Virus record (IMG/VR): IMGVR_UViG_3300033074_000747
Source of the DNA: an uncultured virus (IMG/VR IMGVR_UViG_3300033074_000747)
Taxonomy: Duplodnaviria > Heunggongvirae > Uroviricota > Caudoviricetes
Reading direction: 5' to 3' (one strand)
DNA length: 37,456 bases
The notes under the pieces were generated by a model. It did no database searches. It was not told the DNA's origin and was given only the letters and a program-made list of their open reading frames with translations. This document shows positions 3,692 to 19,774 of this stretch, one piece after another (the first letter of the stretch is position 1; the number at the start of each line of letters is the position of its first letter). Both the position numbers and the translations under genes were made by a program.

Positions 3692-6379
3692 ATGAAGAAG
3701 AATGAGATCAAGATCGGCAAGCACTACACGATCAAGGTCGGCAACAAGATCGTTCCTATCCGCGTCAAGGACGTCTCCTCCCAGGGCCACTACCAGGTCA
3801 GTATCGTCGGTGGAGACGAGGAATTGACGTTGCGCTCTGCCCTTCGATTCCGCAAGCCCATCACCAAGAAGCAGGCCGTCGACATGGCTCGCGGCAAGGT
3901 GACCGAGGCACAGCTGTTCCCACCTCCTGACGACGGTGAAGTTCGTCAGGTGGGGATGGATGGAAAGACCTACGCCATGTCAAGCGGGGATGCCGAGGCA
4001 GTTCCGGTATCGGAGGGTGAGCAAGGCTCGGACCCTATGTCTGCCCCGAATGCGGGAGACCACCAGGTCAAGGTCGATATGACTGTCCCGAGCAAGTCTG
4101 CACCCGCCAAAGAGCGGCAGCAAGAGGAACGGATGGTCCCCCAATCCACGGCTCAGAGTGGATCTGTGGAAGATGTGGAGGAGTCCACCCACCTGGGAAA
4201 TGCACCGGTCCTCGGCAGCCTATTCGGTGAGACGTTTGCCGAAAGATACGGTTCAGAGGAATCTGGTATGCCCAAGCCGCCCACCAAGACCCAAACCTAC
4301 GACGGCATCAAGAAGAGGTTCAGCGAGGTCGGTAAATATGAAGTCGCGGACGCCGAGGCTGTTCCAGTATCGGAGGGTGAGGATAGCCCGGACCCTATGC
4401 CAGCCAGTGCCCCCGCTGTGGAGTCTGGAGAGGGGGGCTGTACGGCCCTGGATGCGTCTGCAACTCATTCGGTGGCCCCAAACCCTGAGTGGTGTACCGA
4501 TGAGGAACCTGACTGCTGCGAGGGTGAGCCGGGAGAACTCTGCTCGGCCTGCGGCAAGCAGATTCCATACACCTGCGCCGGTTGTGGCAAGCCTATCCAG
4601 GTGGTCCTCGACGACCCCCAGCCTACCAACTACCATCTGAAGTGCCGGCCGTCCAAGAGCGTTCTCGGTCAGAAGCTCAAGGAGCGGATCGAGCGTCAAG
4701 CCAACGAGCCGCACCTCATCGTCAAGGCACGGGCAGGCACGGGGAAGACCACCACGCTGATCTGTGCCCTCCAGGTGCTTCGGGGTCAGGAGCCTACCGA
4801 CGCGAAGGGACGGCCGATCACCCCCAGCCCGCAGCAGAAGGCCGTCTGGGACGCCGTGGCCCAGTCTCCAAGCAACTCCAGCGTGTGCTTCGTAGCATTC
4901 AACCGGAGCATCGCCGACGAGCTTCGCCGCCGAGTTCCTCCGGGATGCGACGCCATGACGATGCACTCCATGGGGCTCAAGGCGGTGATGGCCGCTTTCC
5001 CTGAACTGCGGGGCAAGAAGCTCAACGAGTACCGCACCCAGGACCTGATCGAGGAGCTGACCGGCCGTGACATCCGCGAGCTAAGAAAGGCACAGCCCAC
5101 CTTCGTCTCGGCGACGGCCAAGCTGGTCGAACTATGCAAGATGAACCTTATCAACGAGCCAGACACAACCGCACTGTCTGAGCTGGCCTCCTACTACGAC
5201 ATCGACATGGAGGGGACCAACCAACAGCAGGTGTTCGACCTAGTGCCTCGCATCATGGAACGATGCCGCGATCCTCTGGCCGGAGGAATGATCGACTACG
5301 CCGACATGATCTGGATGCCCGTGGTCCTCGGCCTTCCCGTCACCAAGTACGACATCCTGTTCGGCGACGAGGTTCAGGACTGGAACCGATGCCAGCAGGC
5401 CCTCGCCAAGATGGCCGGTCGTCGGCTGGTCCTCTGCGGCGACGAGAAGCAGGCCATCTACGGGTTCGCCGGAGCGGACAGCAAGAGCATGACACGGATG
5501 GCGAAGGAGTTGAGCGGGGGCCAATGTCTGAGATGTGGTACGGGCGGGGTGTGGTTTGACTCAAAGTCCGAAGAGGCCGAGGGCCACTCAGTCTACTGCC
5601 CTGGATGCCGTGATGCGGCTCAAACAAATTGTATCGTGCTACCGCTCACCGTTACCCGCCGTTGCGGCAAGGCCATCGTCGCCGAGGCCCGGAAGATCGT
5701 GCCGGACTTCGAGGCCCACGAGTCCAACCCCGAGGGCAAGATCAGTGAGGCCCGATACCCCACCGCCAAGGACCGGCAGGAGCTGCCCTGGGAGAAGACA
5801 TACTGCGCCCAGGTGCGGGAGGGTGACTTCATCCTATGCCGGGTGAACGCCCCGCTGGTGTCTCAGTGCTTCCGGTTCCTCCGCCGCGGCATCAAGGCCA
5901 ACATCCAGGGGAGGGACGTCGGGGCCGGTCTGATCAACACGGTCAAGCGGCTGATGAAGTCCTACGAGGACGACCCTCAATGGGGGCCGGTTCCCGCCCT
6001 CATCGGCAAGCTGGATGACTGGCGGAGTCAGGAGACCGCGAAGGAGAACGCCAAGCGGAACCCGAGCGAGTCCAAGCTGATCGGCATCCAGGATCGCTAC
6101 GAGTGCCTGTGCTGCTTCTGTGAGGACCAGACCAGTGTGTCAGGAGTGATCCGCAAGATCGAGTCCATCTTCACGGATGACAAGAACGGCACCGGCATCC
6201 GCCTCAGCAGCGTCCACAAGGCCAAGGGGCTGGAGGCCCGACGGGTGTTCTTCTTGATGCCCGAGGGCTGCGGCTGCCCGCATCCGATGGCGAAGAGCGC
6301 CTGGCAGCGGGAGCAGGAGATGAACTGCCTATACATCGGGATCACCAGGGCCATCGAGGAGCTGGTGTTCGTGTACTGA
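3692..6379 (+). CDS. SF1 UvrD/Rep-like DNA helicase with long N-terminal extension and Zn-ribbon insertions (895 aa)
   Basis: Motifs I ARAGTGKTT, Ia AFNRSIA, Ib TMHS, II DEVQD, III GDEKQAIYGFAGA, IV LTVTRRC, V SVHKAKGLE, VI EMNCLYIGITRA, in order. Confidence 0.93.
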   Translation: MKKNEIKIGKHYTIKVGNKIVPIRVKDVSSQGHYQVSIVGGDEELTLRSALRFRKPITKKQAVDMARGKVTEAQLFPPPDDGEVRQVGMDGKTYAMSSGDAEAVPVSEGEQGSDPMSAPNAGDHQVKVDMTVPSKSAPAKERQQEERMVPQSTAQSGSVEDVEESTHLGNAPVLGSLFGETFAERYGSEESGMPKPPTKTQTYDGIKKRFSEVGKYEVADAEAVPVSEGEDSPDPMPASAPAVESGEGGCTALDASATHSVAPNPEWCTDEEPDCCEGEPGELCSACGKQIPYTCAGCGKPIQVVLDDPQPTNYHLKCRPSKSVLGQKLKERIERQANEPHLIVKARAGTGKTTTLICALQVLRGQEPTDAKGRPITPSPQQKAVWDAVAQSPSNSSVCFVAFNRSIADELRRRVPPGCDAMTMHSMGLKAVMAAFPELRGKKLNEYRTQDLIEELTGRDIRELRKAQPTFVSATAKLVELCKMNLINEPDTTALSELASYYDIDMEGTNQQQVFDLVPRIMERCRDPLAGGMIDYADMIWMPVVLGLPVTKYDILFGDEVQDWNRCQQALAKMAGRRLVLCGDEKQAIYGFAGADSKSMTRMAKELSGGQCLRCGTGGVWFDSKSEEAEGHSVYCPGCRDAAQTNCIVLPLTVTRRCGKAIVAEARKIVPDFEAHESNPEGKISEARYPTAKDRQELPWEKTYCAQVREGDFILCRVNAPLVSQCFRFLRRGIKANIQGRDVGAGLINTVKRLMKSYEDDPQWGPVPALIGKLDDWRSQETAKENAKRNPSESKLIGIQDRYECLCCFCEDQTSVSGVIRKIESIFTDDKNGTGIRLSSVHKAKGLEARRVFFLMPEGCGCPHPMAKSAWQREQEMNCLYIGITRAIEELVFVY
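3989..4399 (+). repeat. two 51-nt direct repeats (3989-4039, 4349-4399) in the helicase 5' region
   Basis: DAEAVPVSEGExx(S/P)DPM twice, 360 nt apart, 44/51 nt identical by hand alignment. Confidence 0.9.
4033..4230 (+). other. start-less -1 frame ORF encoding two Zn-finger motifs (candidate frameshift product 1)
   Basis: PYVCPECGRPPGQGRYDCPEQVCTRQRAAARGTDGPPIHGSEWICGRCGGVHPPGKCTGPRQPIR*; bounded upstream by TGA at 4018-4020. Confidence 0.6.
4393..4488 (+). other. start-less -1 frame ORF encoding a Cys4 motif (candidate frameshift product 2)
   Basis: PYASQCPRCGVWRGGLYGPGCVCNSFGGPKP*; bounded upstream by TGA 4378-4380 and TAG 4384-4386. Confidence 0.55.
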
Positions 6380-6770: not shown

Positions 6771-8363
6771 ATGAAGCCGACCATCAATGCAATGTCATCC
6801 CAGACCGACGAGGGATACCAGCAGCTTGAGGACCTGGTCCGAGTACGCGTAGCCCAGGCTGGTCCTCCGCTGTTCACCACGGCAGACCCTTCTGGCGACG
6901 AGGGACTGTTCGGGATCTTCCTTCGGCACCTGCCGGAGGATCGCCGCCAGCACTACAACTGTCACTGCTGCCGAAGGTTCATCAACACCTACGGCGGGCT
7001 GGTCACCATCGACGACCGAGGCCATGTTAGCCCTCTGATATGGGTCCACGAGTCCGACGCCAGTGTGCCGGAGTTCTTTGCGCTGGCCAACAGCGCGCTG
7101 TATCGCTACGTCGCCAGTGCCAAGGTCACCGGGGTTTTCTATTGGAACTCTACCACATGGGGTACGCCCCGAACGGGTGAGTGGACGCACCTGTCAGGAG
7201 AGGTGCCCGTAGCCCCTCGTCTCGGTCTGAAGACCCCAGGTCAGTTGACCGCCGAGAAGCTGGAGGATTACAAGATGCTGAAGATCGCCATATCCGAATA
7301 CAACCTGCCCCTGGTCCAGCAGGCTGTTCGCATCCTAGAGTCCGACACGCTCGACCGATCAGAGAAGACCCTTGGGGTAGCCCAGTTCTTCCTTGAACTC
7401 CACCAGGCTATTCGCAACGGCAGCAAAACCCAGCGGGACAACCTGTTCTGGCGAGCGGCGGCGTTGGCCCCTCCGGGGTTCGCACACGTACGGTCGTCCA
7501 TGATCGGTACGCTGCTGGACGACCTGAAGAGTGGCGGGGACATCGAGGGCATCAAGCGCAGGTGGTCCGCCAAGATGCACCCGCTCCAGTACCAGCGACC
7601 GACCGCTCTGAAGGAGGGCAATATTCGGAAGGCCAACGAGGTCGTCGAACGTCTGAACAGCGCTGGCTCACTGGCTCGCCGGTTTGCCAAGCTGGAGGAC
7701 GTCACTTTCCGACTGTGGGAACCGAAGATCAGTAAGCCGGTGACTCCTCCCTCTGGAGGTGGAGCGTTCGACCATCTGACAAGAGCGAGGGCGAACCGAG
7801 GGATCGACCTCCCGGCGGTCACCATGACGTGGTCCAAGTTCGCCAGCACGGTCTTACCCAGGGCTGCCGAGATCGAGATGATGACCCCTACCCAACGGGC
7901 TAACTTCGCCGCGTTGGTGACCGCGGTGAACCCGGACGCGCCGGGGCTGCTCCAGTGGGACAACCACGTCTCGTGGTACCTCTACCACCGGGGGTCCCTG
8001 CCCTCTGTCTGGAATTTAATAGCTGGGTCGTGGGTCAAGGTCAACCTGATCACTCGGCTACCGTGCCACTGGAATCCCGACGTTCCTGGGGACCACCACG
8101 GCGACGGAGCCATCTTGATTCTCGATGGATGCCGAGACCTCCGCCACGAGAAGGGCGGTGGGTGGTTCCCCGAGTGCCTCAAGTCAGAGTACCGGGAGAT
8201 TCGATCGGCCATGGAAGCATTCGCCCAGGATGCGACCATCGCTGGCAAGGACGAGGCAGCGGCCTGCGGCTACCTGATCTCCAAGGGCCAGTCCGCAGAC
8301 GTCACCCTGAGGGTCCAAACCCCTCTGGGCCACGACGTCTACCGCATCGACCGCTGGGATTGA
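6771..8363 (+). CDS. conserved phage protein of unknown function (530 aa)
   Basis: AGGAG RBS; long GC3-rich ORF; RQHYNCHCCRRFI..YGGLV, SSMIGTLL.D and KMHPLQYQRP motifs recalled from an uncharacterised phage/bacterial family. Confidence 0.8.
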   Translation: MKPTINAMSSQTDEGYQQLEDLVRVRVAQAGPPLFTTADPSGDEGLFGIFLRHLPEDRRQHYNCHCCRRFINTYGGLVTIDDRGHVSPLIWVHESDASVPEFFALANSALYRYVASAKVTGVFYWNSTTWGTPRTGEWTHLSGEVPVAPRLGLKTPGQLTAEKLEDYKMLKIAISEYNLPLVQQAVRILESDTLDRSEKTLGVAQFFLELHQAIRNGSKTQRDNLFWRAAALAPPGFAHVRSSMIGTLLDDLKSGGDIEGIKRRWSAKMHPLQYQRPTALKEGNIRKANEVVERLNSAGSLARRFAKLEDVTFRLWEPKISKPVTPPSGGGAFDHLTRARANRGIDLPAVTMTWSKFASTVLPRAAEIEMMTPTQRANFAALVTAVNPDAPGLLQWDNHVSWYLYHRGSLPSVWNLIAGSWVKVNLITRLPCHWNPDVPGDHHGDGAILILDGCRDLRHEKGGGWFPECLKSEYREIRSAMEAFAQDATIAGKDEAAACGYLISKGQSADVTLRVQTPLGHDVYRIDRWD

Positions 8364-8428: not shown

Positions 8429-8674
8429 ATGACCCGACAAGAATTCAACGATCTGAAAGTGGGCGACCTGGTGCGACACAAGTCCAGAGCCGGACGCATG
8501 GTGACCCTGGTGGTCACCGGCCACTACGGCGACCACGTCACCGCCATCGACACTCACGACCTCACCAACCCAGGAGAATGGGACGTTGTCAGCAAGGCAG
8601 GCCACGTGAACCCGAGCCGGCACTGCGGGTCGTTCGAGAGCCACCTTGATGACCCACTAAGGCTGGACGACTAA
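8429..8674 (+). CDS. small KOW/SH3-like protein (81 aa)
   Basis: AAGGAG RBS; LKVGDLVRH beta-barrel start motif. Confidence 0.65.
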   Translation: MTRQEFNDLKVGDLVRHKSRAGRMVTLVVTGHYGDHVTAIDTHDLTNPGEWDVVSKAGHVNPSRHCGSFESHLDDPLRLDD

Positions 8675-8697: not shown

Positions 8698-8790
8698 ATG
8701 AGTACAAGCGACAAGATCTTGATGTGGGCCGCGATCCTGATCGTAGGGACCGTGGTGCCGCTGCTGGTATGGAGTTTGATCCTCAACTAA
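8698..8790 (+). CDS. 30-aa single-pass membrane peptide (not in ORF track)
   Basis: GGAGGAGAGG RBS; MSTSDKILMWAAILIVGTVVPLLVWSLILN*; stop sits just before the terminator. Confidence 0.65.
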   Translation: MSTSDKILMWAAILIVGTVVPLLVWSLILN

Positions 8791-8794
8791 TCCC

Positions 8795-8837
8795 ACCCCC
8801 GCTCCAGCTCTTCACCGGGCCGGGGCGGGGGTTTTTT
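8795..8837 (+). terminator. Rho-independent terminator of the + strand arm
   Basis: ACCCCCGCTCC...GGGGCGGGGGT stem followed by a T6 run. Confidence 0.85.
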
Positions 8838-8840
8838 CGT

Positions 8841-9293
8841 GCCCTGCGGTTAGGTATACGGATGAATAGTAGTATACGTCGGTATACCTAACTCCTAGAA
8901 CCCTCTAAAACGCACTAGAAAGGCCGATCCTCCTCGCTAGGGTAGACCTACCTGCCCCCTCCCCGATCGGCCCGTAGCGGCTGCCGTAGCGTCTCCTAGA
9001 CCTATACCGTAGCCCGGCCCGGTAAACCTACTCTAGACCTGCTTACCCTCCTCCGACTACCCCATCTAGTATACGCCTATATACCTATCCTCTTAAACCG
9101 TCTAAAACGATCTAGGACGCACGATCCCGGATAAAGGTAAGCTACCCTTACCCATACCCTAGATCGTGCGTCCTACGCTGCCCCGGAGCCTCTGCCGGGC
9201 ACGTTACCCTTCTTCCCCGATACCCTGCCCGTATCCTCCCGCCCGTACGCGCCCGCGTAGGTATACGCGCGTATACGCCCGCCCGCAGGCGCG
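8841..9293. other. non-coding palindrome-rich junction between convergent arms (candidate origin/packaging/recombination locus)
   Basis: Inverted repeats 8849-8859/8882-8892, 8922-8929/8965-8972, 9113-9126/9162-9175; perfect 16-bp palindrome 9261-9276; six TANACCT copies; TA-rich, TG/CA-poor. Confidence 0.6.
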
Positions 9294-10325
9294 CTACCCG
9301 CCCGCCAGCTCTACTAGCCGTCGCATTGAGTGGGCCGCATGCTCCGTCGAGATCCCCGGAGTAAGAGGCAGATAGAGCACCAGGCAGGCGGCCAGGAGCG
9401 AGTTTGGCGTCAGCCCCTCTTTCGCCATTCGACATTCCTGGTACTCCTCCTGGAGGTGGAGCGGCCAGAACGCGCACCGGGCCGCTATCCCTTTGGAGTT
9501 CAGCTGCCGGACGATGCCCCTGATCCAGTCGGGATTGCAGCTCGTGTCCCCTCGGTCCGGTAGCCTCACGTCATAGACCCAGGGAGCCTGGCGAGGCGGC
9601 ATCCTCCACTCGTCGGGGCACAGCCGATCGTACACCACCTCTATCTCCCGCCGCTCCTCCACGTCCAGCTCGTACTGATGGGTATTCTGGTCTGGCCAGT
9701 AGCGGAACTTCTCCAGGATCAGGGCGGCGTGCGCGTTGCTCATCCGGTAGTTATGGCCACGAGGAACGTGCTGGAAGTCGTGGGCGTCGGTGAATCCCAG
9801 GCTGCGCAGTTGACGGGCCAGACGAGCGTGGTTGGGGTCTCGGAAGGCCACCGCGCCGCCCTCCTCCCCGGCGATGATCTTGTTCCGATAGAAGCTCCAG
9901 CAGGCCGCATCCGTATCAGGGTGAGGTGCGACTCCATGCGCTTCAGCAAGGTCTTCGATCACTGGATGGCAGACCCCGGCAGTAGAGTGAATCCAATCCA
10001 TGTCAACTCGACGACCATAAACATGAACTGCCATGAATGCAGAGTAGGGTTCGATCGTCGCGATACCGAGCGATAGGCCATCATCCATCAGCAGGTCGTC
10101 CCTGCAGTCTACGAACACCGGCGTCAGGCCCGCGAGCGAGACCGCTCGGGCGCAGGCGATCATCGTGAAGTCGGGCACGATCACCTCCGACCCCCTCGGT
10201 AACTGTAGTGCTTCCAAGGCCAGGTGGAGCGCTGCCGTCCCGGACGAGCACGCCACCACCTGCTCCGGCTTGTACAGTCCCGTCCAGCCAGCAATCTCGA
10301 CCTCAAGCTCTTGAAACGGCTCCAT
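9294..10325 (-). CDS. DegT/DnrJ/EryC1/StrS family PLP-dependent sugar aminotransferase (343 aa)
   Basis: CSSGTAALHLAL, EVIVPDFTMIA, PVFVD, VHVYG, IEDLAEAHG, SFYRNKIIAGEEGG (catalytic Lys), GHNYRMS; start placed at ATG 10325 after AAGGAG. Confidence 0.92.
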   Translation of the reverse strand: MEPFQELEVEIAGWTGLYKPEQVVACSSGTAALHLALEALQLPRGSEVIVPDFTMIACARAVSLAGLTPVFVDCRDDLLMDDGLSLGIATIEPYSAFMAVHVYGRRVDMDWIHSTAGVCHPVIEDLAEAHGVAPHPDTDAACWSFYRNKIIAGEEGGAVAFRDPNHARLARQLRSLGFTDAHDFQHVPRGHNYRMSNAHAALILEKFRYWPDQNTHQYELDVEERREIEVVYDRLCPDEWRMPPRQAPWVYDVRLPDRGDTSCNPDWIRGIVRQLNSKGIAARCAFWPLHLQEEYQECRMAKEGLTPNSLLAACLVLYLPLTPGISTEHAAHSMRRLVELAGG

Positions 10326-10383
10326 CGCACATGCTCCTTGATATATTGCCGATGCTCGTAGGGTATGGTCTTGGGTGACGTCA

Positions 10384-10653
10384 TCACTCGACCTCTGCCG
10401 GGCCGGGGATCTTCCTGGGAGGAGAGTAGGTTGGAGTGGTCTGGTTGTTCTGGCTTGCGGCCGTCCTGCGAAGGTAGATCTGGTACGCCACGGCGTTCCT
10501 CTGGCGGACGAGGGCCAGGTAATAGTTGGCGCGCTGCTGGCGGAGGTACGCCTGGTAGACGGCCTCGGCCTGCGCCCTCCGGTAGCAGACCTGCCCGAAC
10601 GATGATTGACACCCCGCCGCCAGTAGCACAAGAATCAAGATTATTCTACGCAT
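10384..10653 (-). CDS. putative lipoprotein / secreted small protein (89 aa)
   Basis: GGAGGTG RBS; MRR + hydrophobic core + LAAGC lipobox-like sequence. Confidence 0.65.
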   Translation of the reverse strand: MRRIILILVLLAAGCQSSFGQVCYRRAQAEAVYQAYLRQQRANYYLALVRQRNAVAYQIYLRRTAASQNNQTTPTYSPPRKIPGPAEVE

Positions 10654-10922
10654 AATACACCTCCCAGGTCCTGTTGGTCGCCCCTTGTGAGTATAGACTC
10701 CAGTACCAACTCGGCGGCCTCTATCGCCTGTCGAAGCGAGCTGGACGCCCCTCGGTGGTTAGTGCTGTTGATGAACCACACCCACCCGTAGCTGTCGTTC
10801 ACAGGCTCGTTGAAGTAGACCTCGGCCATTGACTCGCGGACGATCCCTTTCACCTTCTTGCCGAGCACCCAGTCGTTGTTCCCCAGGTGCTGCCACTCCA
10901 AGCCCATCTCGTCGATCTTCAT
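10641..10922 (-). CDS. hypothetical protein (93 aa)
   Basis: GAAGGTGA RBS; protein-like composition; fits the operon. Confidence 0.65.
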   Translation of the reverse strand: MKIDEMGLEWQHLGNNDWVLGKKVKGIVRESMAEVYFNEPVNDSYGWVWFINSTNHRGASSSLRQAIEAAELVLESILTRGDQQDLGGVLCVE

Positions 10923-10929
10923 GTCACCT

Positions 10930-11076
10930 TCACATCGGAAAGAACCAGGACAGGGCCGCCAGCGTCACGGCGAGGGCCGCCCACAGCAGGGCCATCTGCA
11001 CCCTCGCCCTCCTCACCGCCGCCCTGTAGTGCTCCACGTCACGGATCGGTCTCAGATCCTTCTCTCGGTCTTCCAT
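10930..11076 (-). CDS. small membrane protein (48 aa)
   Basis: GAGGAGG RBS + ATG 11076; C-terminal hydrophobic helix ALLWAALAVTLAALSWFF. Confidence 0.6.
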   Translation of the reverse strand: MEDREKDLRPIRDVEHYRAAVRRARVQMALLWAALAVTLAALSWFFPM

Positions 11077-11086
11077 GAACCCCTCC

Positions 11087-11761
11087 TCAGGCCGACTTGC
11101 TCCTCTCGTTCCTCGACCGCAGCAGCTCAAGCATCCGGGAGAACCGCTCTACCATCCACCGGTGGACGTGCAGCATCACCCGAGCGTCGGTGGCCTTCAC
11201 CACCCTGCCGTCGGGCATCTGGCCGTCCTTCTCCGTCAGAGCGTTGTCCAACTCGGCGAGACGGTGCCCCACGTCCTTCAGCTGACCCTTGATGTCGCCG
11301 CTCTCCGCCAGGCCCCAGAACCGGCAGGCGTCCGAGAAGCGGATCTCGTCCTTGCCCCCGTCGTTGAACAACCCAAGCACACCTGACCCGTAGACCCCAT
11401 TCAGCAGTCGCAGGTCCAGGTCTCCCAGCTCGTGGTGGTCAGGTCGAGGTGGCTCGGCCTCTCCGCTGGCCCGACATATCCAGGCCCTCCCTTGCCTCGT
11501 CAGGGCGTAGCTCCTCACCTTCAGCCGATGGAGGAATCCCTTTCGGACCAGGCCGCGGTTCCCCATCACCGAGCTGAGAATCTTGTTCGAGTCGGGGTGC
11601 TGTCGCTCGTACCCGGCCAGCCCCAGCTCCGCCGGGAACTTCCGCCAGGCTGCCACCACCAGGTCTGCGTCAGTGAACGGCTCGGGCACGTCCTTCAGGC
11701 TCAGCAGGACCATCCCCGTGATGCTGCTGGGCCTGATCTGGTTCTTGTTACTAGGGTTCAT
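11087..11761 (-). CDS. winged-helix-like protein, planctomycete-type (224 aa)
   Basis: FTDADLVVAAW.KFP..LGL.GY...HPDSNK....VMG..GL...G.L......YALT..G pattern ending in a wHTH wing; ATGA overlap with upstream gene. Confidence 0.6.
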   Translation of the reverse strand: MNPSNKNQIRPSSITGMVLLSLKDVPEPFTDADLVVAAWRKFPAELGLAGYERQHPDSNKILSSVMGNRGLVRKGFLHRLKVRSYALTRQGRAWICRASGEAEPPRPDHHELGDLDLRLLNGVYGSGVLGLFNDGGKDEIRFSDACRFWGLAESGDIKGQLKDVGHRLAELDNALTEKDGQMPDGRVVKATDARVMLHVHRWMVERFSRMLELLRSRNERSKSA

Positions 11762-12369
11762 GTCTTCCTCCGATAGTTGTCCTCAGAATATCCGTACCTG
11801 ACGAATGCATCCATCTCGGCCTCGTAGATCCGTCTGGCCGCCCGGTCCGCGTAGAGGGTCCTCGCCCGATAGTCGTCCAGGGTCCCTGCCCTGTTGGCCG
11901 GCGGGCAGTTGAGTATTGCCCTGCAGTCGGCCGCCCCTCCTCTCGCGACCAGGTATCCCAGGAGGTCGCTGCACAGCGTCTCACTCTTGAGGACTACCAC
12001 GCTGCCCCCTCCAGGGTCGTATCGCTCGTACAACTCGGTGAGGAACCCAGGTCGCCCCTCGACCACCGCATCGACGAACCCCTCGAAGGTCGGCTGGACG
12101 TAGTCCCCGTGGCCTATCGCCAGGTCGCCGCCCCATCCCTCCTTGTCCCTCCACGCCCAGAATGAGGCGTACCAGGCGTAGGGGTTCCTCACGCTGACGA
12201 ATCGAGGCCAGTCCGGCTCGACCTCCGAGCTGTGGAAGTGGTCGGAGTGCTGGTATCCCTCGTACCGGTTCGGCACCCCCGCCGCGTCCAGGGCCGACTT
12301 GACCCAGGTGCCGCCGGTCTTATAGATGTGGAGGTACACGGACTTGATCGAGGGAATCACCAGTGCCAT
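11758..12369 (-). CDS. sulfotransferase family protein (203 aa)
   Basis: 5'-PSB loop YLHIYKTGGTW, 3'-PB motif FVSVRNPY.WY.S, C-terminal Y..D...F.Y. Confidence 0.78.
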   Translation of the reverse strand: MALVIPSIKSVYLHIYKTGGTWVKSALDAAGVPNRYEGYQHSDHFHSSEVEPDWPRFVSVRNPYAWYASFWAWRDKEGWGGDLAIGHGDYVQPTFEGFVDAVVEGRPGFLTELYERYDPGGGSVVVLKSETLCSDLLGYLVARGGAADCRAILNCPPANRAGTLDDYRARTLYADRAARRIYEAEMDAFVRYGYSEDNYRRKT

Positions 12370-12372
12370 CGC

Positions 12373-13440
12373 TTACTCCCAGGGCCAGCGGTGTCCCGCC
12401 TGCTCGTAGTACTTGATCGTCTTCCTCAGGGCGTCCTCCAGCGTCACCATCTGCGACTGCTGGGTCAGCATGCTCTCCGGCCCGCATGCCTCCCGGATCT
12501 TGGTGTTGTCTGACTGCAGGTGCCAGATCTCCCACGGCCGCTGCCGTGCCGGGTCGGTGATCACGTTCACGTCGACGCCCATCAGCGAGCCGACCATCTT
12601 CGCCAGCTCGTAGATCCTAACCGAGCGCTGCGACCCCAGGTTGTAGACCTCCCCGAACGATCCTCTCTCCAGCAGCTCCACGGCGATCCGGACGGCGTCA
12701 CCCGCGTACATGAAGTCTCGACTGCTGTCGTTCCCCAAGAACACCTTGGCGGGCCACATCGTCCTCGGCTCGCCGTTCCGATGGTGGATCTGACTGACGA
12801 TCTCCGGGATGACGTAGGGGTGGGTCTCACGCTCGCCGATGCAATTGAACTGGCGAAGTGCAATCACCGGCGTACCGCGCTCCTTCCACGCCACCTGGCA
12901 GTAGGAGTCGACCGCTGCCTTGGCTGCTCCGTAGCTGGAGTGGGGACAAACCGGATCAGCTTCGCATATGGGGTAGTTCTGAACGTCCCTGCTTTGATGC
13001 TGGCGAGCCTGGTTTATAGAAGCCTCACGGCGACTGGTGACACTACCCTCTCCATAGATCTCCGCCGACGACACCTGGAGCACGGCCTGGCATCCGGCCT
13101 CCTGCGCCGCGTTGATGACCTTGATCGCCCCCATGAAGTTCACGTCGCACACGTGGAGGGGCCTGGCGAAGCTGTCGGGGATGTACGGCCACGCTGCATA
13201 GTTGAACACGTACTGGATGTCGTACTTCTTGAATAGCCCTTTCATCCGTCCCTCCGACCCCGTGATGTCGTGGTGGAAGAACAGGGCGTTCTTGTGGACG
13301 AACTCTCTCCGCCCTACGCACAGGTTGTCGATCACCATCACCTTGCACCGGCGGTCCTCGACGAGGTGATCGACCAGATGGCTGCCGAGGAACCCGGCCC
13401 CGCCCACCACCGCCACAGGACAATCTCGTATCGTTCTCAT
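12373..13440 (-). CDS. NAD-dependent nucleotide-sugar epimerase/dehydratase, extended SDR (355 aa)
   Basis: GGAGFLGSHL, IDNL, VSSAEIYG, YGAAK, LRQFNC.G, RDFMYAGD, YNLGS. Confidence 0.93.
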   Translation of the reverse strand: MRTIRDCPVAVVGGAGFLGSHLVDHLVEDRRCKVMVIDNLCVGRREFVHKNALFFHHDITGSEGRMKGLFKKYDIQYVFNYAAWPYIPDSFARPLHVCDVNFMGAIKVINAAQEAGCQAVLQVSSAEIYGEGSVTSRREASINQARQHQSRDVQNYPICEADPVCPHSSYGAAKAAVDSYCQVAWKERGTPVIALRQFNCIGERETHPYVIPEIVSQIHHRNGEPRTMWPAKVFLGNDSSRDFMYAGDAVRIAVELLERGSFGEVYNLGSQRSVRIYELAKMVGSLMGVDVNVITDPARQRPWEIWHLQSDNTKIREACGPESMLTQQSQMVTLEDALRKTIKYYEQAGHRWPWE

Positions 13441-13449
13441 TGCTTTCTC

Positions 13450-13611
13450 CTATCCCAGTCTCTGGGATCGCTTGAATATCTCCAGCTCGATCTCGGCGCG
13501 CTCCGCCCGCATCGCCGCCACCTGCTGCCACAGCTTCTCCTCGTCCATCCTCAGCTGCAGCGTCCGCTCCTGCATCTCCACGACGGTCATAGCTTGCACT
13601 GGCTTCGGCAT
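13450..13611 (-). CDS. 53-aa coiled-coil peptide (not in ORF track)
   Basis: TGATG overlap with the methyltransferase stop; MPKPVQAMTVVEMQERTLQLRMDEEKLWQQVAAMRAERAEIELEIFKRSQRLG*. Confidence 0.6.
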   Translation of the reverse strand: MPKPVQAMTVVEMQERTLQLRMDEEKLWQQVAAMRAERAEIELEIFKRSQRLG

Positions 13612-14114
13612 CACTCCACGCTCCCCTCGTCGTCAGGATCGTATTCCAGGTACAGCAGTCTTCGGGCCATGCGCCTCAGCTCGGCCTCCATCTTGCTCCA
13701 CTCCTCGTCGCCCAGGTTCCGCCTCACCATCGGGCGGATGCTGATCATCACGGCCCAGTCGAACTGGTAGCCGCCCCTGGTCTCGATCCGGCGGAGGTCT
13801 CCCACCACGAACTGACGCTGGGGGTGTTCCACGCGGGCCAACTCGATGAAGTCGGGCGACAGGTCCATCCCCACGTAGTCGCCGCACCAGGTCTCTGGCA
13901 TCAGGCTCAGCAGGCGGCCCCAGGCACACCCGGCGTCGAGCACGCTGTCGGTGTCCCTTATCCTGTCTCGAAGGATCTGCCGGTGCTTCTCCTCGATGGC
14001 GATCCAGCGCTCCAACGGGCAGCGGAAGATGGCGTGGTGCCTCTGGCTGCCGGACGATCGGAGCCGCTGTCGCCAGTAGCCTGTATCATCGATAGGTTCA
14101 GGATCTTTGCTCAT
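13611..14114 (-). CDS. class I SAM-dependent methyltransferase (167 aa)
   Basis: VLDAGCAWGRL (motif I), YVGMDLSPDFI, FVVGDL, FDWAV. Confidence 0.88.
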   Translation of the reverse strand: MSKDPEPIDDTGYWRQRLRSSGSQRHHAIFRCPLERWIAIEEKHRQILRDRIRDTDSVLDAGCAWGRLLSLMPETWCGDYVGMDLSPDFIELARVEHPQRQFVVGDLRRIETRGGYQFDWAVMISIRPMVRRNLGDEEWSKMEAELRRMARRLLYLEYDPDDEGSVE

Positions 14115-14129
14115 TACCGTCCTCCATAT

Positions 14130-14366
14130 CTACCAACCACGGACCTCGAACTGCGACTGCTCGGTCGGCTCCACCTCGTCGAGCTGGATGTGCGCAGCGA
14201 CCTTCTTGCCCTCTTCTCCACCCGCCGTCATCAGGTAGTGCATCGCCGGGCTGAGGTGGATGCGGCTGCCGTCCCACAGCGCCCTCCGCCTCCCGGTCAG
14301 GTCGGGACGGGACACCAGCGGCACCCTCTCGCCTCGCCGGGCCTCTAAGAACTCAAGTAGGGTCAT
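14130..14366 (-). CDS. hypothetical protein (78 aa)
   Basis: AGGAG RBS; GC3-rich codons; fits the operon. Confidence 0.65.
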   Translation of the reverse strand: MTLLEFLEARRGERVPLVSRPDLTGRRRALWDGSRIHLSPAMHYLMTAGGEEGKKVAAHIQLDEVEPTEQSQFEVRGW

Positions 14367-14400
14367 TGTCTATACTCCTGGTTCAACTTGTCCGCCAAGC

Positions 14401-15414
14401 TCATAGTAACCTCTCCCTCACGACCTCGATCAGCCGCTCGCATCGGTGCCGGTACGTGTGCTCCCGCATGGTGCGCTGGTATCCCGCCCACGCGATGTCA
14501 GCCCGCTTCTTCGGGTTGCCCAGGTAGTCCACCATCTTCGAGTGCAGCTCCATCCGGCTGCCGTACATCACCAGGTCGGTGCCGTCCTCGTACTGCTCCT
14601 GGAGCCGAGCGCACCGAGGGTGGAACAGGAATGCGGCGAACCCTAGCATATTATAAACCCTGTTGCTCCAGTAGTTGTCCGTCACCGGACCGTCCGGAGC
14701 CACGACCACGTCGTGCCTGGATATCAGCTCGGCCATGTCCCGTCCGTGGACCCCCCTCTGCACGTGAGTGAACTTGTCGCCGTACGCCCACCGCATCTCG
14801 CTGACGAAGCTCTCCCTCGTACGCCCGCCCGCCCGTATGCCCGTGAAGAGGATGCTGCCTGGAATCCTCTCGGTCGGATAGGCCACGCCCGGACCAGTTA
14901 CTCTCTCGTCGACCCCCTGCGTCAACCATACCAGCTTACCATTGCTAGGATCTGGGACAACCCCAGTGGCCTGACAGTAAGCACACGGGTTGTAATCGTC
15001 GTCTGGATTCTTCTCTGTTCCGAAGCACTTGGGACAAGCACCCTCCTCCGTCGCGTTCACGTAGTCTACCCAGTCCCCGTCGGTGCAGAAGCCTAGCTCC
15101 ACGTGGGGCAGCATGTTCTTCATCCAGGCGATCCGCTGGTCGCACCTGCCGCGTATCGTCGGGTCCGGGAAGTCCACCAGGTCAAAGTACCAGAACACGC
15201 GCGGGGCTATCCCGCGGAGGGACTGCACCGTATTGTAATCCTGCCACTTGTGGAACAGATAGAGGTCGGCCCCCTCTATGCGCCGAGCCTTGTGACCCTT
15301 GGCCTCGCCGAGACGTTGGACGTCGTGCCCCAGCTGGACGAGGGCGTGAGTGATAGCCCCCTCGTCGTCGTTGCTGTTCGACTGGTCATGGTTGGCGATA
15401 TAGACTATCCGCAT
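14401..15414 (-). CDS. CgeB-like GT-B glycosyltransferase with Zn-ribbon insertion (337 aa)
   Basis: MRIVYI..LGHDV start; YWSNRVY..LG...F, L..QYEDG.DLV.Y, IA.AGY.R....HTY.HR typical of Glyco_trans_1_2; CPKC...CAYC insert. Confidence 0.85.
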   Translation of the reverse strand: MRIVYIANHDQSNSNDDEGAITHALVQLGHDVQRLGEAKGHKARRIEGADLYLFHKWQDYNTVQSLRGIAPRVFWYFDLVDFPDPTIRGRCDQRIAWMKNMLPHVELGFCTDGDWVDYVNATEEGACPKCFGTEKNPDDDYNPCAYCQATGVVPDPSNGKLVWLTQGVDERVTGPGVAYPTERIPGSILFTGIRAGGRTRESFVSEMRWAYGDKFTHVQRGVHGRDMAELISRHDVVVAPDGPVTDNYWSNRVYNMLGFAAFLFHPRCARLQEQYEDGTDLVMYGSRMELHSKMVDYLGNPKKRADIAWAGYQRTMREHTYRHRCERLIEVVRERLL

Positions 15415-15560
15415 GTTTTGGGTTCCTTGGGATTGATGATTGGCGTGGGACTCCTCTTGAACGTTCCGCCACAGTTATAGCAGTAGAGGGTTTGATACCC
15501 TTGCTGATCTACGATTAGCGACGACCACGTGTGAGTTGACCCGCACTCCGGGCACTTCAT
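15405..15560 (-). CDS. small Zn-ribbon protein (51 aa)
   Basis: ATGA overlap at 15557-15560; MKCPECGS...YCYNCGGTF. Confidence 0.65.
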   Translation of the reverse strand: MKCPECGSTHTWSSLIVDQQGYQTLYCYNCGGTFKRSPTPIINPKEPKTCG

Positions 15561-16792
15561 TTCATTGATGCCATCTGGCATAGTAACTCCTTGTACTTCG
15601 GTCCCAGCACCCCCCACGACATCGACCGCCGCCACTCCACCGCTGACTCCGAGTACGCCGAGATGTCCCGGCCGTACCACTCGTCAATCTTGGCCGCGAT
15701 GTCTTTAGGGTCAATCACCGCCTCATCGAACTCCAGGAACCGCGCTGCTGCCCTCTGACGAGTGTACCCCTGGACTGGAATAAGAGGGTTAATCTCCTCA
15801 TCTGATACTCTTACTGTTCCGGGCAATGGGACCAGAGGGTTGTATCGTTCCTCCTTGAAGGACATCGTTGACATCCCTGTTTTCATCTTAGAGGGGAGCC
15901 AGGTATTCATTGGGAATCGGTCGGTCGCCATCACCAGCATACCGGCAGCGCGAGCCTCCTGGAGCGGTAGTGACAGGCCGTTGAACTTCTCTGGGAAGAT
16001 GAACACATCGCCTTCGGTGTAGAGGCTATCCCTTAGCATACTGCCTATCTGGAGGATCAGGGTCTGACCCTTGGAGTTGATAAGTGATTCGTCAGCTGTC
16101 GAAGTCCAACAGCCGCCTCCGGTTTCCCACTCCAGCTGATCCTGACTACGGATAATGAACTTGGCTGGCGACTTCACTAGCCAAATAGCCTCGATCAATT
16201 CAGCTGTCCCGTTCCGCCCCTTCAGCCCCCCGTGGCCCGCGTTGTGGACGAACACCTCCGCCCTCTCGCGCTTGCGATAGGGGACCCAATCGGGCACGGG
16301 TACTGGGGTAAACGCGCACCAGGGCTGGACGCTGTAGTCTTTACACGCCGCCCAGGACTTCTGGAACGGAGTCACAAGCCATTGCGAAGGTAGGTGGCCG
16401 TCAATAAAGTACCGCAGATCCAACAGCGACGGGCACAGGAAGGCGTCTGGTCTCGCGGGAAGCTCCGTCGGCGTGCATTCGTACATCGGCATCAGCGCGG
16501 CGGGCTTTCCAATAGCGCGGCAGTAGTCGAGTAGTTCCCAATAAAAAGGCGTCTCAAAAAACAGCATGACGTCGCAACGGTCGCATAGTTCCTTGGCCCG
16601 GCGCATATCCTCCGGCGTGTGCCTCCCGCTGAGGGGGTCTCCAGCGTATGGATACCACTCTGGGTGCATCTTCCGCGTCCGATGCTTCATGACCAGAACG
16701 TCGGTCACAATGCCGTGGTCGTAGAAGTCTTTGGCCAGGATGCCGAGGCCCTGCTCGGTCGAGAATACGATCGAACCAACTCTGATAGACAT
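15557..16792 (-). CDS. GT4-like (GT-B) glycosyltransferase (411 aa)
   Basis: DVFIFPEKFNGLSLPLQEARAAGMLVMATD..PMN matches the GT4 donor-binding segment; FVHNAG, RNGT..LIEA. Confidence 0.85.
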   Translation of the reverse strand: MSIRVGSIVFSTEQGLGILAKDFYDHGIVTDVLVMKHRTRKMHPEWYPYAGDPLSGRHTPEDMRRAKELCDRCDVMLFFETPFYWELLDYCRAIGKPAALMPMYECTPTELPARPDAFLCPSLLDLRYFIDGHLPSQWLVTPFQKSWAACKDYSVQPWCAFTPVPVPDWVPYRKRERAEVFVHNAGHGGLKGRNGTAELIEAIWLVKSPAKFIIRSQDQLEWETGGGCWTSTADESLINSKGQTLILQIGSMLRDSLYTEGDVFIFPEKFNGLSLPLQEARAAGMLVMATDRFPMNTWLPSKMKTGMSTMSFKEERYNPLVPLPGTVRVSDEEINPLIPVQGYTRQRAAARFLEFDEAVIDPKDIAAKIDEWYGRDISAYSESAVEWRRSMSWGVLGPKYKELLCQMASMK

Positions 16793-16831
16793 GACCTACC
16801 CTCACGGCTAGATAGATTGTTAGACACCTGT

Positions 16832-17377
16832 TTAAGATCCGAACCCCGCTACTATCGCTCTGTACGGATTGTGGACGTGGTCAACGTATGGAACGCCGTT
16901 CAGGTCCATGACCCCTTTCAATACTCGATGCGCCTCGTCCACCGTCGGCGCGAGTGCGGCGAATGACAACTCGTCTCCCTCTGAGTTGATCACGCACCAG
17001 TACGTCGCCCGCTCCCCCTCGAAGTCGTATTCGGCCTGCGAGTTGGCGGTGAACGACACCGGAGTGTGCGTGACCAGACTGGCGGGAAAGCTCACCCCCG
17101 CCGCGCGCAACGTCTGCTTCAACTCCTCGACAGCGTCCGCCAGCGACGAGTTCCGAGCGTAGTGACCGGCGTAGGATACCTGCCATTGTGCTTGACCTCT
17201 GGTCGAGTAGGGCCTGACCGTGTACCACTTGGCCTGGCCGCTGATGACGTTCGTAGATGTGGCCTCGGCAGGTGCTGTGGCGTCGGCCACCACGCCGGTC
17301 CCGCCGCACCCCTGGCACGCGCTGGTAGACGTCAGTCCCTGGTATTTCCCCGACCCTTTGCAGTCTGGACAAATCAT
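16832..17377 (-). CDS. hypothetical protein with N-terminal DnaJ-type CxxCxGxG finger (181 aa)
   Basis: CPDCKGSG...CQGCGGTG; ATGA overlap with upstream gene. Confidence 0.7.
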   Translation of the reverse strand: MICPDCKGSGKYQGLTSTSACQGCGGTGVVADATAPAEATSTNVISGQAKWYTVRPYSTRGQAQWQVSYAGHYARNSSLADAVEELKQTLRAAGVSFPASLVTHTPVSFTANSQAEYDFEGERATYWCVINSEGDELSFAALAPTVDEAHRVLKGVMDLNGVPYVDHVHNPYRAIVAGFGS

Positions 17378-19284: not shown

Positions 19285-19287
19285 CAC

Positions 19288-19733: not shown

Positions 19734-19774
19734 CACTCACCGCCTTTCACTTCCCCCGGTGTCCAGTCGTTCTT

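Follow-up and report, generated by a model that had tools for sequence, protein, structure and literature searches.

The non-coding junction at which the two gene arms of a new siphophage converge (8841-9300) is almost devoid of the dinucleotides CA and TG and rich in TA, a bias that is real, lies far beyond chance and is unmatched by any other segment of its length in the window. The window is the whole stretch of DNA that was analysed, 37,456 nt from an uncultured virus (IMG/VR IMGVR_UViG_3300033074_000747), in which the junction separates a helicase arm on the + strand from an arm of tail and sugar genes on the - strand. The reading that we favour, at a probability of roughly 40%, is that the junction is a spacer for protein binding and termination, which selection has kept clear of those thymine contexts that can be modified.

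The 460 nt of the junction comprise 173 C, 96 G, 96 T and 95 A. CA occurs six times, compared with 35.7 expected from base composition (odds ratio, OR, 0.17), TG nine times (OR 0.45) and TA 54 times (OR 2.72), and CG is raised (OR 1.27); for comparison, the ratios in the whole window are 1.08 for CA, 1.00 for TG and 0.75 for TA. Twelve of the 15 TG/CA dinucleotides belong to TGC (8) or GCA (4), so that the hand count of a first-pass annotation (about 9 TG and 6 CA, 12 of them as TGC/GCA) proved exact, and the trinucleotides that it had failed to notice, TGT, ACA, TTG, CAA, TCA and TGG, were each counted zero times (TGA was found once and CCA twice). The abundance of TA, CTAG and GTATAC was likewise borne out. 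The junction contains 8 of the 41 CTAG and 6 of the 11 GTATAC copies of the window, with 0.07 copies of GTATAC expected, and the observed/expected ratio of CTAG is 5.2, compared with 0.26 elsewhere in the window. The bias had also been said to extend into the last codons of the adjoining DegT gene; this holds only slightly, for a single CTAG at 9314, and from 9306 the density of CA and TG is normal.

When odds ratios were computed along the window, as had been suggested, the junction was the extreme segment in three respects. Its symmetrised CA/TG ratio (0.27) and its TC/GA ratio (0.77) were lower than in all 3607 other 460-nt segments (minima 0.57 and 0.78, respectively), and its TA ratio (2.73) was higher than in all of them (maximum 1.65). 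A first-order Markov model fitted to the window outside the junction gave, over 20000 simulations, 57.0±6.0 for CA+TG (minimum 34) and 12.0±3.3 for TA (maximum 27), compared with the 15 and 54 observed. Repeats do not account for the depletion: with every second repeat copy or arm masked (207 of the 460 nt), the remaining 253 nt kept a CA/TG ratio of 0.35 and a TA ratio of 2.67; therefore the filler between the motifs is biased too. Nor is the sequence an assembly artefact: a contig from run X2 covers 8825-10340 with no differences, and contigs from run X7, which belongs to another study, cover 8941-9091 with two differences and 9100-9252 with one. In run X3, one contig matches 9169-9885 and is unlike the window before 9169, and another, of 535 nt, matches the window only at 8795-8862; at 80% likeness, runs X3 and X11 gave no cover over parts of the junction, which has the same appearance as divergence.

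The bias is confined to few places. Of the intergenic regions in the window that are 80 nt or longer, 15 in all, 13 had CA/TG ratios of 0.79-1.15, and only 8791-9293 (0.31), which holds most of the junction, and 26504-26718 (0.37) were low; across codon boundaries (position 3-1) there was no depletion either (CA 1.04, TG 0.99). These normal values in the other intergenic regions and at codon position 3-1 argue for local selection and not for genome-wide drift. The second island (26504-26718; TA 1.82, TC/GA 0.90) lies upstream of the gene at 25679-26503 and contains a GTATAC flanked by CTAG, runs of GTAGTA, a hairpin and, at 26520-26596, the longest stretch in the window free of CA and TG (76 nt); a scan of 26450-26760 for sigma-70-like promoters found no site.

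The junction is framed by well-defined genes. In the + arm lies a UvrD-like helicase (3692-6379; PF00580, E 1.3e-17), and the arm is closed by two small ORFs between 8429 and 8790, one of 81 aa (8429-8674) and one of 30 aa (8698-8790), hydrophobic and with a strong ribosome-binding site, neither of which matched a family. On the right, the last gene of the - arm encodes a DegT/DnrJ/EryC1-type aminotransferase (9294-10631; PF01041, E 7.4e-51), with its stop codon at 9294-9296. Within the core (8800-9140) no frame between stops exceeded 44 aa. A code with TAG reassigned was considered for the junction and dropped, since 28% of the other genes of the window stop at TAG. The junction contained no tRNA or tmRNA gene.

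Immediately after the + arm lies its intrinsic terminator (8795-8840, + strand), a GC-rich hairpin with arms at 8795-8808 and 8819-8832 followed by six T, which has the features of a Rho-independent terminator; a simple terminator scan passed over it, its loop being of 10 nt and the limit of the scan 8. Inverted repeat A (8848-8892; 20-nt arms, 85% complementary) follows, with GTATAC at 8854, 8872 and 8882, the last two forming dyad 1 (8872-8887, 10 bp apart). Dyad 2 (9069-9084), 197 bp from dyad 1, joins GTATAC and ATATAC, also 10 bp apart, and dyad 3 (9261-9276), 192 bp from dyad 2, is the perfect 16-bp palindrome GTATACGCGCGTATAC. The three thus form a series of 16-bp GTATAC-N4-RTATAC sites spaced 192-197 bp apart. 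The first two fall within the copies of a 61-nt direct repeat (8870-8930 and 9067-9127), 75% identical, whose 15 differences include 6 transitions. Two helices appeared in the folds of both strands, that of inverted repeat B (8921-8971; 8-bp arms, 35-nt loop) and, dominant, that of hairpin C (9113-9175; 29-nt arms, 83% complementary, 5-nt loop). Both are followed by a short T run on the - strand, and hairpin C, a partial fit to an intrinsic terminator, likely terminates the DegT operon. Both strands folded more than expected (z -4.7 and -5.4). The only sigma-70-like promoter match (one site, compared with a mean of 0.3 in shuffles) runs on the - strand from 9096 to 9068, overlapping dyad 2. 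The spacing of TA in the junction gave no helical-repeat signal (largest z 2.8, at lag 6).

The first-pass annotation had suggested an origin or a packaging site at this place, which found no support, as neither a terminase nor an initiator gene lies nearby. The turn in GC skew coincides with the switch in gene orientation at the junction, and the low duplex stability is not peculiar to it: in a list of the window's six least stable 50-mers, the dyad clusters come fifth and sixth. Origins of the iteron type have tandem or clustered direct repeats beside an easily melted AT-rich element and an initiator gene; the junction has three dyads, 192-197 bp apart, and no initiator was found. The perfect palindrome at 9261-9276 may resemble the protelomerase targets of linear plasmid prophages, which are perfect palindromes next to a protelomerase gene; no ORF of the window matched the telomere-resolvase families of Pfam and PHROGs.

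Counting both strands, 56.5% of the thymines of the junction precede A, 22.5% C, 13.1% T and 7.9% G, compared with 13.7%, 38.3%, 15.7% and 32.4%, respectively, in the rest of the window; that is, TG is down 4.1-fold and TC 1.7-fold, TT is about unchanged and TA is up 4.1-fold. In the CTAG and GTATAC palindromes every thymine stands in a TA context on both strands. According to the available passages of the NAR 2026 paper PMC13458397, the preferred context of thymidine modification is TG, with TC used less and TT or TA far less, and those of Flodman 2019 (PMC6449724) describe TG/TC in the resistant sites of three phages (M6, ViI, phiW-14) and an M6 kinase that acts on TG.

The junction is the non-coding spacer in which the two convergent transcription arms end; it carries the + arm terminator and a pair of hairpins, each followed by a T run, at which transcription of the - arm probably ends. 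We propose that its three 16-bp dyads and eight CTAG sites would form an array of palindromic, TA-centred putative protein-binding sites. Selection would act on dinucleotide context, excluding T before G strongly and T before C mildly on both strands and placing T before A instead. The likeliest reason would be that the phage, like its relatives G001 and G011 described below, makes DNA containing 5-hydroxymethyl-dU and then hypermodifies it through the 5-hmdU DNA kinase pathway, which in characterised phages favours TG over TC and hardly uses TA or TT. With no T-S dinucleotides, the junction would remain normal B-DNA, without modification, once the genome is mature and would be readable by sequence-specific proteins, possibly a dyad-binding regulator, RNA polymerase, or a factor for replication or packaging.

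The link to modification is circumstantial, because the window contains no modification gene. None of the 31 ORFs scanned in it matched a 5-hmdU DNA kinase (PF18723 or PF18748), a transferase (PF18724 or similar) or a dUMP hydroxymethylase, and no homologue of the modification proteins of G001 was found; the window is part of a genome, and in G001 and G011 the kinase is encoded in the arm that would lie beyond its left end. The phrog_1735 protein (6771-8363), with no Pfam, NCBIfam or PDB match, was considered as a marker of hypermodification and rejected, its 534 matches being spread over many unrelated phage groups. The protein encoded at 1555-3555 had no PDB or Pfam match; its Atlas matches were all below 0.9, and ParB_N, which 21% of a single cluster (rank 23) carry, is a lead only. 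A point that runs counter to the modification reading is that the rest of the window avoids neither TG nor TC. The promoter region upstream of the + arm (intergenic 1112-1554) is also of normal composition (CA/TG 1.02), so not every cis-element is protected.

In support of this reading, G001 and G011 share with the window the order helicase, junction and DegT, and 12-17 of its genes at 27-58% identity (tblastn identity of the UvrD-like helicase, 58% to G001 and 53% to G011). Both encode the PF18723 5-hmdU DNA kinase (E 9.7e-48 in G001; 2.2e-49 and 1.6e-48 in G011), a thymidylate-synthase homologue and MazG, and G001 additionally an amino acid:DNA transferase and a PLP enzyme. Against the reading, a PF18723 search of 10 related IMG/VR records had a single positive, G001 (G011 was found separately), so that the kinase cassette is not universal among phages sharing modules with this one. 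Each relative shows an avoidance of its own. G001 is depleted in TG/CA throughout its genome (OR 0.52; TA 1.30; TC/GA 1.24), in its non-coding DNA (CA/TG 0.51, TA 1.30) and at synonymous positions within and between codons (position 2-3, CA 0.36 and TG 0.47; position 3-1, CA 0.45 and TG 0.34), and CTG makes up 10% of its Leu codons, compared with 51% in the window. G011 is depleted in TC/GA (0.67). In both phages the avoidance is strongest at the same junction: CA/TG of 0.12 in G001, within the lowest 0.17% of 6648 segments, and TC/GA of 0.18 in G011, the lowest of 6048. TG is abundant in the junction of G011 (OR 1.44), so the modification model needs a different kinase specificity there. The junction of G001 has a palindrome with a small Zn-ribbon ORF, and that of G011 a Cro/C1-type HTH gene. 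A 14-nt word that takes in the T run of the + arm terminator and the bases that follow is found again at the G011 junction, and 13 8-mers are shared with that of G001, compared with 2.3 in shuffles; a sigma-70-like scan of the G001 junction found no site.

Known kinase phages gave a milder picture. Genome-wide CA/TG ratios in M6, Ab19, PaSt-2, PhiJL001, SBSphiC and KNP4 were 0.89-1.23; therefore the genome-wide biases of G001 and G011 need a further cause. Their sign is ambiguous as well, since TA could be a favoured context rather than TG or TC an avoided one. In M6, Ab19 and PaSt-2, one or two islands each bear the same three-way signature (CA/TG z -4.1 to -5.5, TC/GA z -2.1 to -3.8, TA z +3.3 to +5.2); these three phages are related to one another and their islands are AT-richer, which makes this a weak and non-independent support. 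The two islands of M6 map onto the two intergenic regions of YuA that are annotated with experimentally active sigma-70 promoters (NC_010116.1). Five kinase-negative relatives (55-81 kb) had no such non-coding island, the sole comparable signal being a coding Gly-Tyr-Ser repeat. Strong TA-rich, CA-poor signals in two other loci (L017 and G003) were coding Gly-Tyr-Gly-Ser/Thr repeats and were set aside as not comparable.

The interpretation in the first-pass annotation is thus partly supported, and its suggestion of a short motif, perhaps a base-modified one, that the locus avoids is the best-fitting one: the depletion is at the level of dinucleotides, strong for TG/CA and mild for TC/GA, occurs in 2 of 15 intergenic regions and is absent at codon boundaries, and its order agrees with the order of modification, TG > TC >> TT/TA, given in the available passages of PMC13458397 and PMC6449724. 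The passages seen of PMC5889632, PMC8989533, PMC6449724 and PMC13458397 do not describe a local desert of modifiable context.

The closest competitor, somewhat less probable, is that the junction is a plain regulatory and terminator spacer whose composition is a by-product of TA-centred motifs (GTATAC dyads, CTAG and words resembling TAGACCTA) and of a filler rich in C, and has nothing to do with DNA modification. The excess of GTATAC and CTAG, the regular spacing of the dyads, the many inverted repeats and the excess folding would all be accounted for, as would the palindrome with its small Zn-ribbon ORF and the HTH gene at the junctions of the relatives. A search of IMG/VR for the dyad pattern gave one match, a near-identical 21-bp dyad in the divergent promoter region of an unrelated phage, which is in line with a regulatory role. 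Such a spacer explains neither the bias of the masked 253 nt, nor the TC/GA minimum of the window, nor why the G001 and G011 junctions are extremes of their own, different avoidances.

Direct searches for the locus itself returned little. The matched phage (L063) has 11 ORFs, none homologous to the window or to G001, and its dyad may have arisen by chance. A blastn search of 8700-9400 against 50,697 phage records had no match, and a sensitive blastn that compared the junction and 26504-26718 with every locus retrieved recovered only self-repeats and one weak 48-nt match within the window. A DegT query found nothing in IMG/VR and, in metagenome contigs, two distant fragments, neither extending beyond the end of the gene. 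Among the 17 runs listed, none was of RNA.

It is improbable that the junction and the island at 26.5 kb were imported by recombination from a TG/CA-avoiding lineage and kept the composition of the donor. G001 shows that such a lineage exists among close relatives, the 8-mers shared with its junction exceed those of shuffles, and the locus varies between strains, as the run X3 contigs that diverge at 9169 or match only at 8795-8862 illustrate. However, the junction (CA/TG 0.27, TA 2.73) is more strongly biased than the non-coding DNA of G001 in both respects and is low in TC/GA, which G001 is not; the sensitive blastn found no alignable homology to G001, G011 or any other retrieved locus, and an import would leave unexplained why the junction is extreme within G001 itself.

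Slightly less credible still is a local mutation process turning CpA/TpG into TpA, the alternative raised in the first-pass annotation, in which C would change to T at CpA on either strand, for example by deamination of methylated or exposed cytosines where convergent transcription meets. The counts fit, as the sum of CA, TG and TA is conserved (69 observed; 57+12=69 from the Markov expectation). The indices used for fungal repeat-induced point mutation (RIP), with thresholds of >0.89 for TpA/ApT and <1.03 for (CpA+TpG)/(ApC+GpT), also fit, at 2.45 and 0.26 in the junction, compared with 0.63 and 1.04 elsewhere in the window, a likeness to RIP in outcome only, CpA/TpG being lost and TpA gained. 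Nevertheless, the forty-odd C-to-T changes would imply an ancestral G+C of about 68%, compared with 62% in the window, and CG is raised, which is impossible by C-to-T change. The 13 other intergenic regions and the synonymous codon boundaries are unaffected, and transitions make up only 6 of the 15 differences between the 61-nt repeat copies. Unlike the targets of RIP, moreover, this is phage DNA with no long duplicated target (the longest repeat is 61 nt at 75%), with the bias present in the unmasked 253 nt and with neighbouring neutral DNA untouched. We know of no CpA-specific deaminase in phages, and a literature search on CpA/TpG/TpA bias in phages returned no relevant paper.

Least probable of all, and very unlikely, are one or more structured non-coding RNAs, such as a transcript of the - strand, rich in G and with several GGAGG, that would extend from the promoter-like site (9096-9068) as far as inverted repeat B, under RNA constraint and avoiding start codons: that site, the T runs after the hairpins, the excess folding and the scarcity of ATG, GTG and TTG on the + strand (two in total) would suit it, but both strands fold equally well, as expected of DNA palindromes and not of one RNA, the best of five weak matches in a scan against Rfam 15, none of them near the gathering score, reached 17.5 bits, compared with 50, and five of the six remaining CA are potential - strand start codons (CAT 2, CAC 3), so start-codon avoidance fails there.

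Returning to the modification reading, a wider form of it, which we hold as tentative, takes the junction and 26504-26718 as modification deserts, in which cis-acting DNA in TA and a few TT contexts would be spared by the phage's own 5-hmdU kinase and its palindromes kept readable by proteins in a genome hypermodified elsewhere at TG > TC; the same force, acting genome-wide, would have recoded the synonymous sites of G001 to avoid TG and those of G011 to avoid TC. If this is true, kinase specificity could be read from the dinucleotide dialects of phages (TG in those like G001, TC in those like G011), the sequence by itself would reveal the regulatory, origin or packaging sites of such phages as gaps in modifiable context, and the cost of modification could be measured as codon-level recoding. 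This would be of value for understanding how sequence-reading proteins handle heavily hypermodified phage genomes. The prediction is that CTAG and GTATAC sites are cleavable and that CATG and TGCA sites are resistant. Whatever the mechanism, the junction is likely among the strongest local dinucleotide anomalies in a phage.

Among known systems, the avoidance of short motifs, such as restriction sites or the CTAG tetranucleotide, which many bacteria avoid, offers a partial parallel: the rest of the window avoids CTAG (0.26), and selection on very short words is common to both. In the junction, by contrast, the effect is local and inverted, a dinucleotide and not a 4-6-bp site being avoided within a 460-bp island in which CTAG is about 20-fold denser than elsewhere in the window. 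Operator arrays and bidirectional terminators of siphophages resemble the junction in its position between convergent arms, its hairpin with a T run, its regularly spaced 16-bp palindromes and the small regulator genes at the equivalent place in relatives; they differ in that no cognate regulator was found in the window and in that the extreme bias here runs through the filler between sites. The hypermodification systems of M6, ViI, phiW-14, PaMx11 and SH-Ab 15599, in which a 5-hmdU DNA kinase works with an amino-acid or diamine:DNA transferase, have their counterpart in the PF18723 kinase and thymidylate-synthase homologue of G001 and G011, and the junction is depleted in an order (TG > TC > TT, TA being enriched) that matches the order of modification reported in the passages available; unlike in those systems, no such gene lies in the window, and the islands of the known phages sampled are mild. 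The promoter regions of Pseudomonas phage YuA/M6 differ in being milder (CA/TG 0.48-0.75, compared with 0.27) and AT-richer, in having consensus promoters and in lacking similarity to the window sequence, but they are the two most TG/CA-poor and TA-rich places of a TG/TC-hypermodified genome, and one of them separates the helicase gene from the end of the structural arm.

The spacer at 8841-9300 (460 nt; C 173, G 96, T 96, A 95) contains 6 CA, 9 TG and 54 TA dinucleotides, corresponding to odds ratios (OR) of 0.17, 0.45 and 2.72, whereas the window as a whole has 1.08, 1.00 and 0.75. Twelve of its 15 TG/CA occurrences lie in TGC or GCA; TGT, ACA, TTG, CAA, TCA and TGG are absent by trinucleotide count, and the stretch holds 8 of the 41 CTAG and 6 of the 11 GTATAC sites in the window. 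The recount reproduced all the hand counts of the first-pass annotation for this junction. Among all 460-nt windows the junction is the extreme for CA/TG (OR 0.27; minimum 0.57 in the 3607 others), TC/GA (0.77; minimum 0.78) and TA (2.73; maximum 1.65). A null model of 20000 Markov-1 simulations gave 57±6 CA+TG (minimum 34) versus the 15 observed, and 12±3.3 TA (maximum 27) versus 54. Counting both strands, thymine is followed by G in 7.9% of cases versus 32.4% in the rest of the window (down 4.1-fold), by C in 22.5% versus 38.3% (down 1.7-fold), by T in 13.1% versus 15.7% (about unchanged) and by A in 56.5% versus 13.7% (up 4.1-fold). The first-pass annotation had named a TG/CA ratio typical of intergenic DNA as a refuting outcome, and this comparison favours the observation: among the 15 intergenic regions that reach 80 nt, a CA/TG of 0.79-1.15 is seen in 13, and only the junction (0.31) and 26504-26718 (0.37; TA 1.82) fall below. 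We conclude that selection against TG/CA and, to a milder degree, against TC/GA has shaped the composition of the junction.

The window covers part of the genome of an uncultured siphophage, whose minus strand encodes a tape-measure protein (33281-36913) as well as tail proteins. On the plus arm, a UvrD-like helicase (3692-6379) precedes a DUF7336 protein, one of phrog_1735 and a pair of small ORFs finishing at 8790; a 666-aa protein without assigned function is also encoded on this strand. On the minus strand, a DegT-type aminotransferase (9294-10631) ends a nucleotide-sugar/glycosyltransferase block. As the two arms lie on opposite strands, the stretch is a spacer between convergent arms. 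The 530-aa phrog_1735 protein (6771-8363, plus strand) has homologues in 534 phage records, spanning Ackermannviridae, phiCbK-like, SP-15, Pamexvirus and Rhizobium phages; it had no match in Pfam, NCBIfam or PDB, and a homologue is named RNA polymerase in a few records. The sugar block (9294-24682, minus strand), directly downstream of the tail genes, encodes DegT, an epimerase/dehydratase, a SAM methyltransferase, glycosyltransferases, a radical SAM enzyme and a UDP-glucose dehydrogenase, and the same block sits beside tail genes in 8 IMG/VR contigs of 37 to 58% G+C; its target may be the virion or DNA. Within it, the protein at 18096-18905 (minus) has an N-terminal TIGR02996 domain (E 3.5e-16). 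This domain typically occurs in Gemmata/Planctomycetota and in myxobacteria, and may be a hint at the host. Two pairs of long minus-strand ORFs overlap, 17374-18219 with 18096-18905 by 124 nt and 20216-21175 with 20932-21858 by 244 nt, reflecting either mis-called starts or a frameshift. The TG/CA-poor region at 26504-26718 contains a GTATAC flanked by CTAG, GTAGTA runs and a hairpin. Downstream of it come the gene at 25679-26503 and, farther on, that for a sigma-70-family factor (24687-25406, minus).

The junction is a real, non-coding, palindrome-rich spacer with a terminator and putative binding sites; no open frame in its core exceeds 44 aa. It is preceded by the plus-arm terminator, a GC-rich hairpin with six T (8795-8840), and contains an inverted repeat (8848-8892), a 61-nt unit in two 75% identical copies (8870 and 9067) and two further hairpins, at 8921-8971 and, with 29-nt arms, at 9113-9175. 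Short T runs follow both hairpins on the minus strand, where they probably stop the DegT operon. Three 16-bp dyads, each of two GTATAC-like hexamers 10 bp apart, start at 8872, 9069 and 9261, spaced by 197 and 192 bp, and the third is a perfect palindrome. An operator array, an origin or another nucleoprotein site are candidates for this cis-element. In a listing of the six 50-mers of lowest stability in the window, the dyad clusters come 5th and 6th, and are thus not unique in it; TA spacing in the junction showed no helical periodicity. In the enriched palindromes GTATAC and CTAG every thymine is in a TA context. The sign of the effect may also be the reverse, with TA as the preferred context instead of TG/TC as the disfavoured ones. 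That plain motif composition explains the junction is a reading we consider rather unlikely: the first-pass annotation had asked whether repeats explain the depletion, and the 253 nt left when the second copy or arm of each repeat is masked (207 nt) keep a CA/TG of 0.35 and a TA of 2.67.

Public metagenome runs contain the locus. A contig of one run covers 8825-10340 with 0 differences, and is not independent, as its run and the one that best covers the window belong to one study; contigs from another study, labelled sludge metagenome, match 8941-9091 with 2 differences and 9100-9252 with 1. Related strains in two runs of other studies match the flanks of 8795-9170 at about 90-96% and diverge from the window inside the junction, and the locus thus resembles a mosaic boundary between strains. 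Import of the junction from a TG-avoiding lineage would fit such a boundary, and we regard this origin as improbable. Searches of phage, IMG/VR and metagenome collections gave no close relative. Slightly less credible is a CpA-to-TpA mutational process, which would exchange CA for TA: the genes of the window are free of such pressure (codon position 3-1 CA 1.04, TG 0.99), so the bias is confined to two particular non-coding regions and comes neither from the mutation spectrum of the phage nor from a general property of non-coding DNA. A non-coding RNA is very improbable, since the folding far above shuffles (z -4.7 and -5.4) concerns both strands, as expected for DNA palindromes, and tRNA and Rfam searches of the junction gave nothing and nothing near threshold, respectively.

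IMG/VR yielded two distant syntenic relatives. G001 (66,880 bp; class direct terminal repeats, CheckV completeness 100) has 17 genes in common with the window at 27-58% identity and keeps the helicase, junction, DegT order; G011, a 61,310-bp contig, has 12 genes in common and the same junction. G001 carries a full, M6-like cassette for thymidine hypermodification: a 5-hmdU DNA kinase (PF18723, E 9.7e-48), an amino acid:DNA transferase (PF18724) and a PLP enzyme, besides a thymidylate-synthase homologue and MazG. G011 has two tandem PF18723 paralogues (E 2.2e-49 and 1.6e-48), a P-loop kinase, a thymidylate-synthase homologue and MazG. Both genomes are biased throughout. The OR of G001 (CA/TG 0.52, TA 1.30, CG 1.20) are uniform along the genome, and the bias is carried by synonymous sites (CA 0.36 and TG 0.47 at codon position 2-3; 0.45 and 0.34 at 3-1), CTG making up 10% of Leu codons versus 51% in the window and GTG 14% of Val codons versus 47%. 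To our knowledge, no such genome-wide TG/CA bias has been described. G011 has TC/GA 0.67, CG 0.66 and TA 1.22, with GATC at 0.38 of expectation. In both, the avoidance particular to that genome reaches its extreme at the helicase/DegT junction: CA/TG 0.12 in G001 (lowest 0.17% of 6648 windows) and TC/GA 0.18 in G011 (lowest of 6048; CG 0.32). The three junctions are not alignable, and the short words they have in common exceed chance; one of these, of 14 nt, lies at the tail of the terminator and is common to the window and G011. The G001 junction has a palindrome, a promoter-like site containing GTATAC and a 69-aa Zn-ribbon ORF; that of G011 has a Cro/C1-type HTH gene, and its non-coding part is very rich in TG/CA, with repeated GGCCCGTA-like words.

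The most economical cause of the junction composition would be escape from context-specific thymidine hypermodification, to which we give a probability of roughly 0.4: a TG/TC-poor junction would escape a modification favouring TG over TC. The first-pass annotation had proposed avoidance of a possibly base-modified motif; G001, G011 and the literature make this idea concrete, and its link to hypermodification is by inference, as the window itself has no modification gene. Conversion of 5-hmdU is described as sequence-specific, with motifs then unknown (Lee 2018 PMC5889632; Lee 2021 PMC8989533). Flodman 2019 (PMC6449724) reports TG or TC in restriction-resistant sites of M6, ViI and phiW-14, and mentions that the M6 kinase acts on TG. 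In the account of Acinetobacter phage SH-Ab 15599 (NAR 2026, PMC13458397), TG is preferred, TC less and TT/TA much less, the same order as the depletion in the junction, and CTAG sites are weakly protected.

PF18723 was found in one of ten related records searched, among which G001 was the positive control and nine were 34-87% complete. Five kinase-negative relatives (55-81 kb) had no non-coding island of the junction type, their single strong signal being a coding Gly-Tyr-Ser repeat. Two TA-rich, CA/TG-poor mimics in the scans, L017 5050-5300 and L075 8960-9200, were rejected as coding tandem repeats (Gly-Thr-Ala-Thr-Ala-Gly-like and Gly-Tyr-Gly-Ser-like). Samples of the kinase-bearing phages M6, Ab19, PaSt-2, PhiJL001, SBSphiC and KNP4 (GenBank) have a normal genome-wide CA/TG (0.89-1.23), implying that the kinase alone is not the cause of the biases of G001 and G011. 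M6, Ab19 and PaSt-2 each contain one or two islands in which all three measures deviate as in the junction (CA/TG z -4.1 to -5.5, TC/GA z -2.1 to -3.8, TA z +3.3 to +5.2); the other three have none of that strength. The three Pseudomonas phages with islands are mutually related and their islands are AT-richer, so the support they lend is weak. No regions of M6/YuA are poorer in TG/CA than the two M6 islands (L058 3192-3831 and 29441-29865), which have a repeated TAAGT-rich element in common. They map at 95-96% identity to two YuA intergenic regions (413-839 and 32840-33498), both annotated with experimentally active sigma-70 promoters, and one of them separates the helicase gene from the end of the structural arm.
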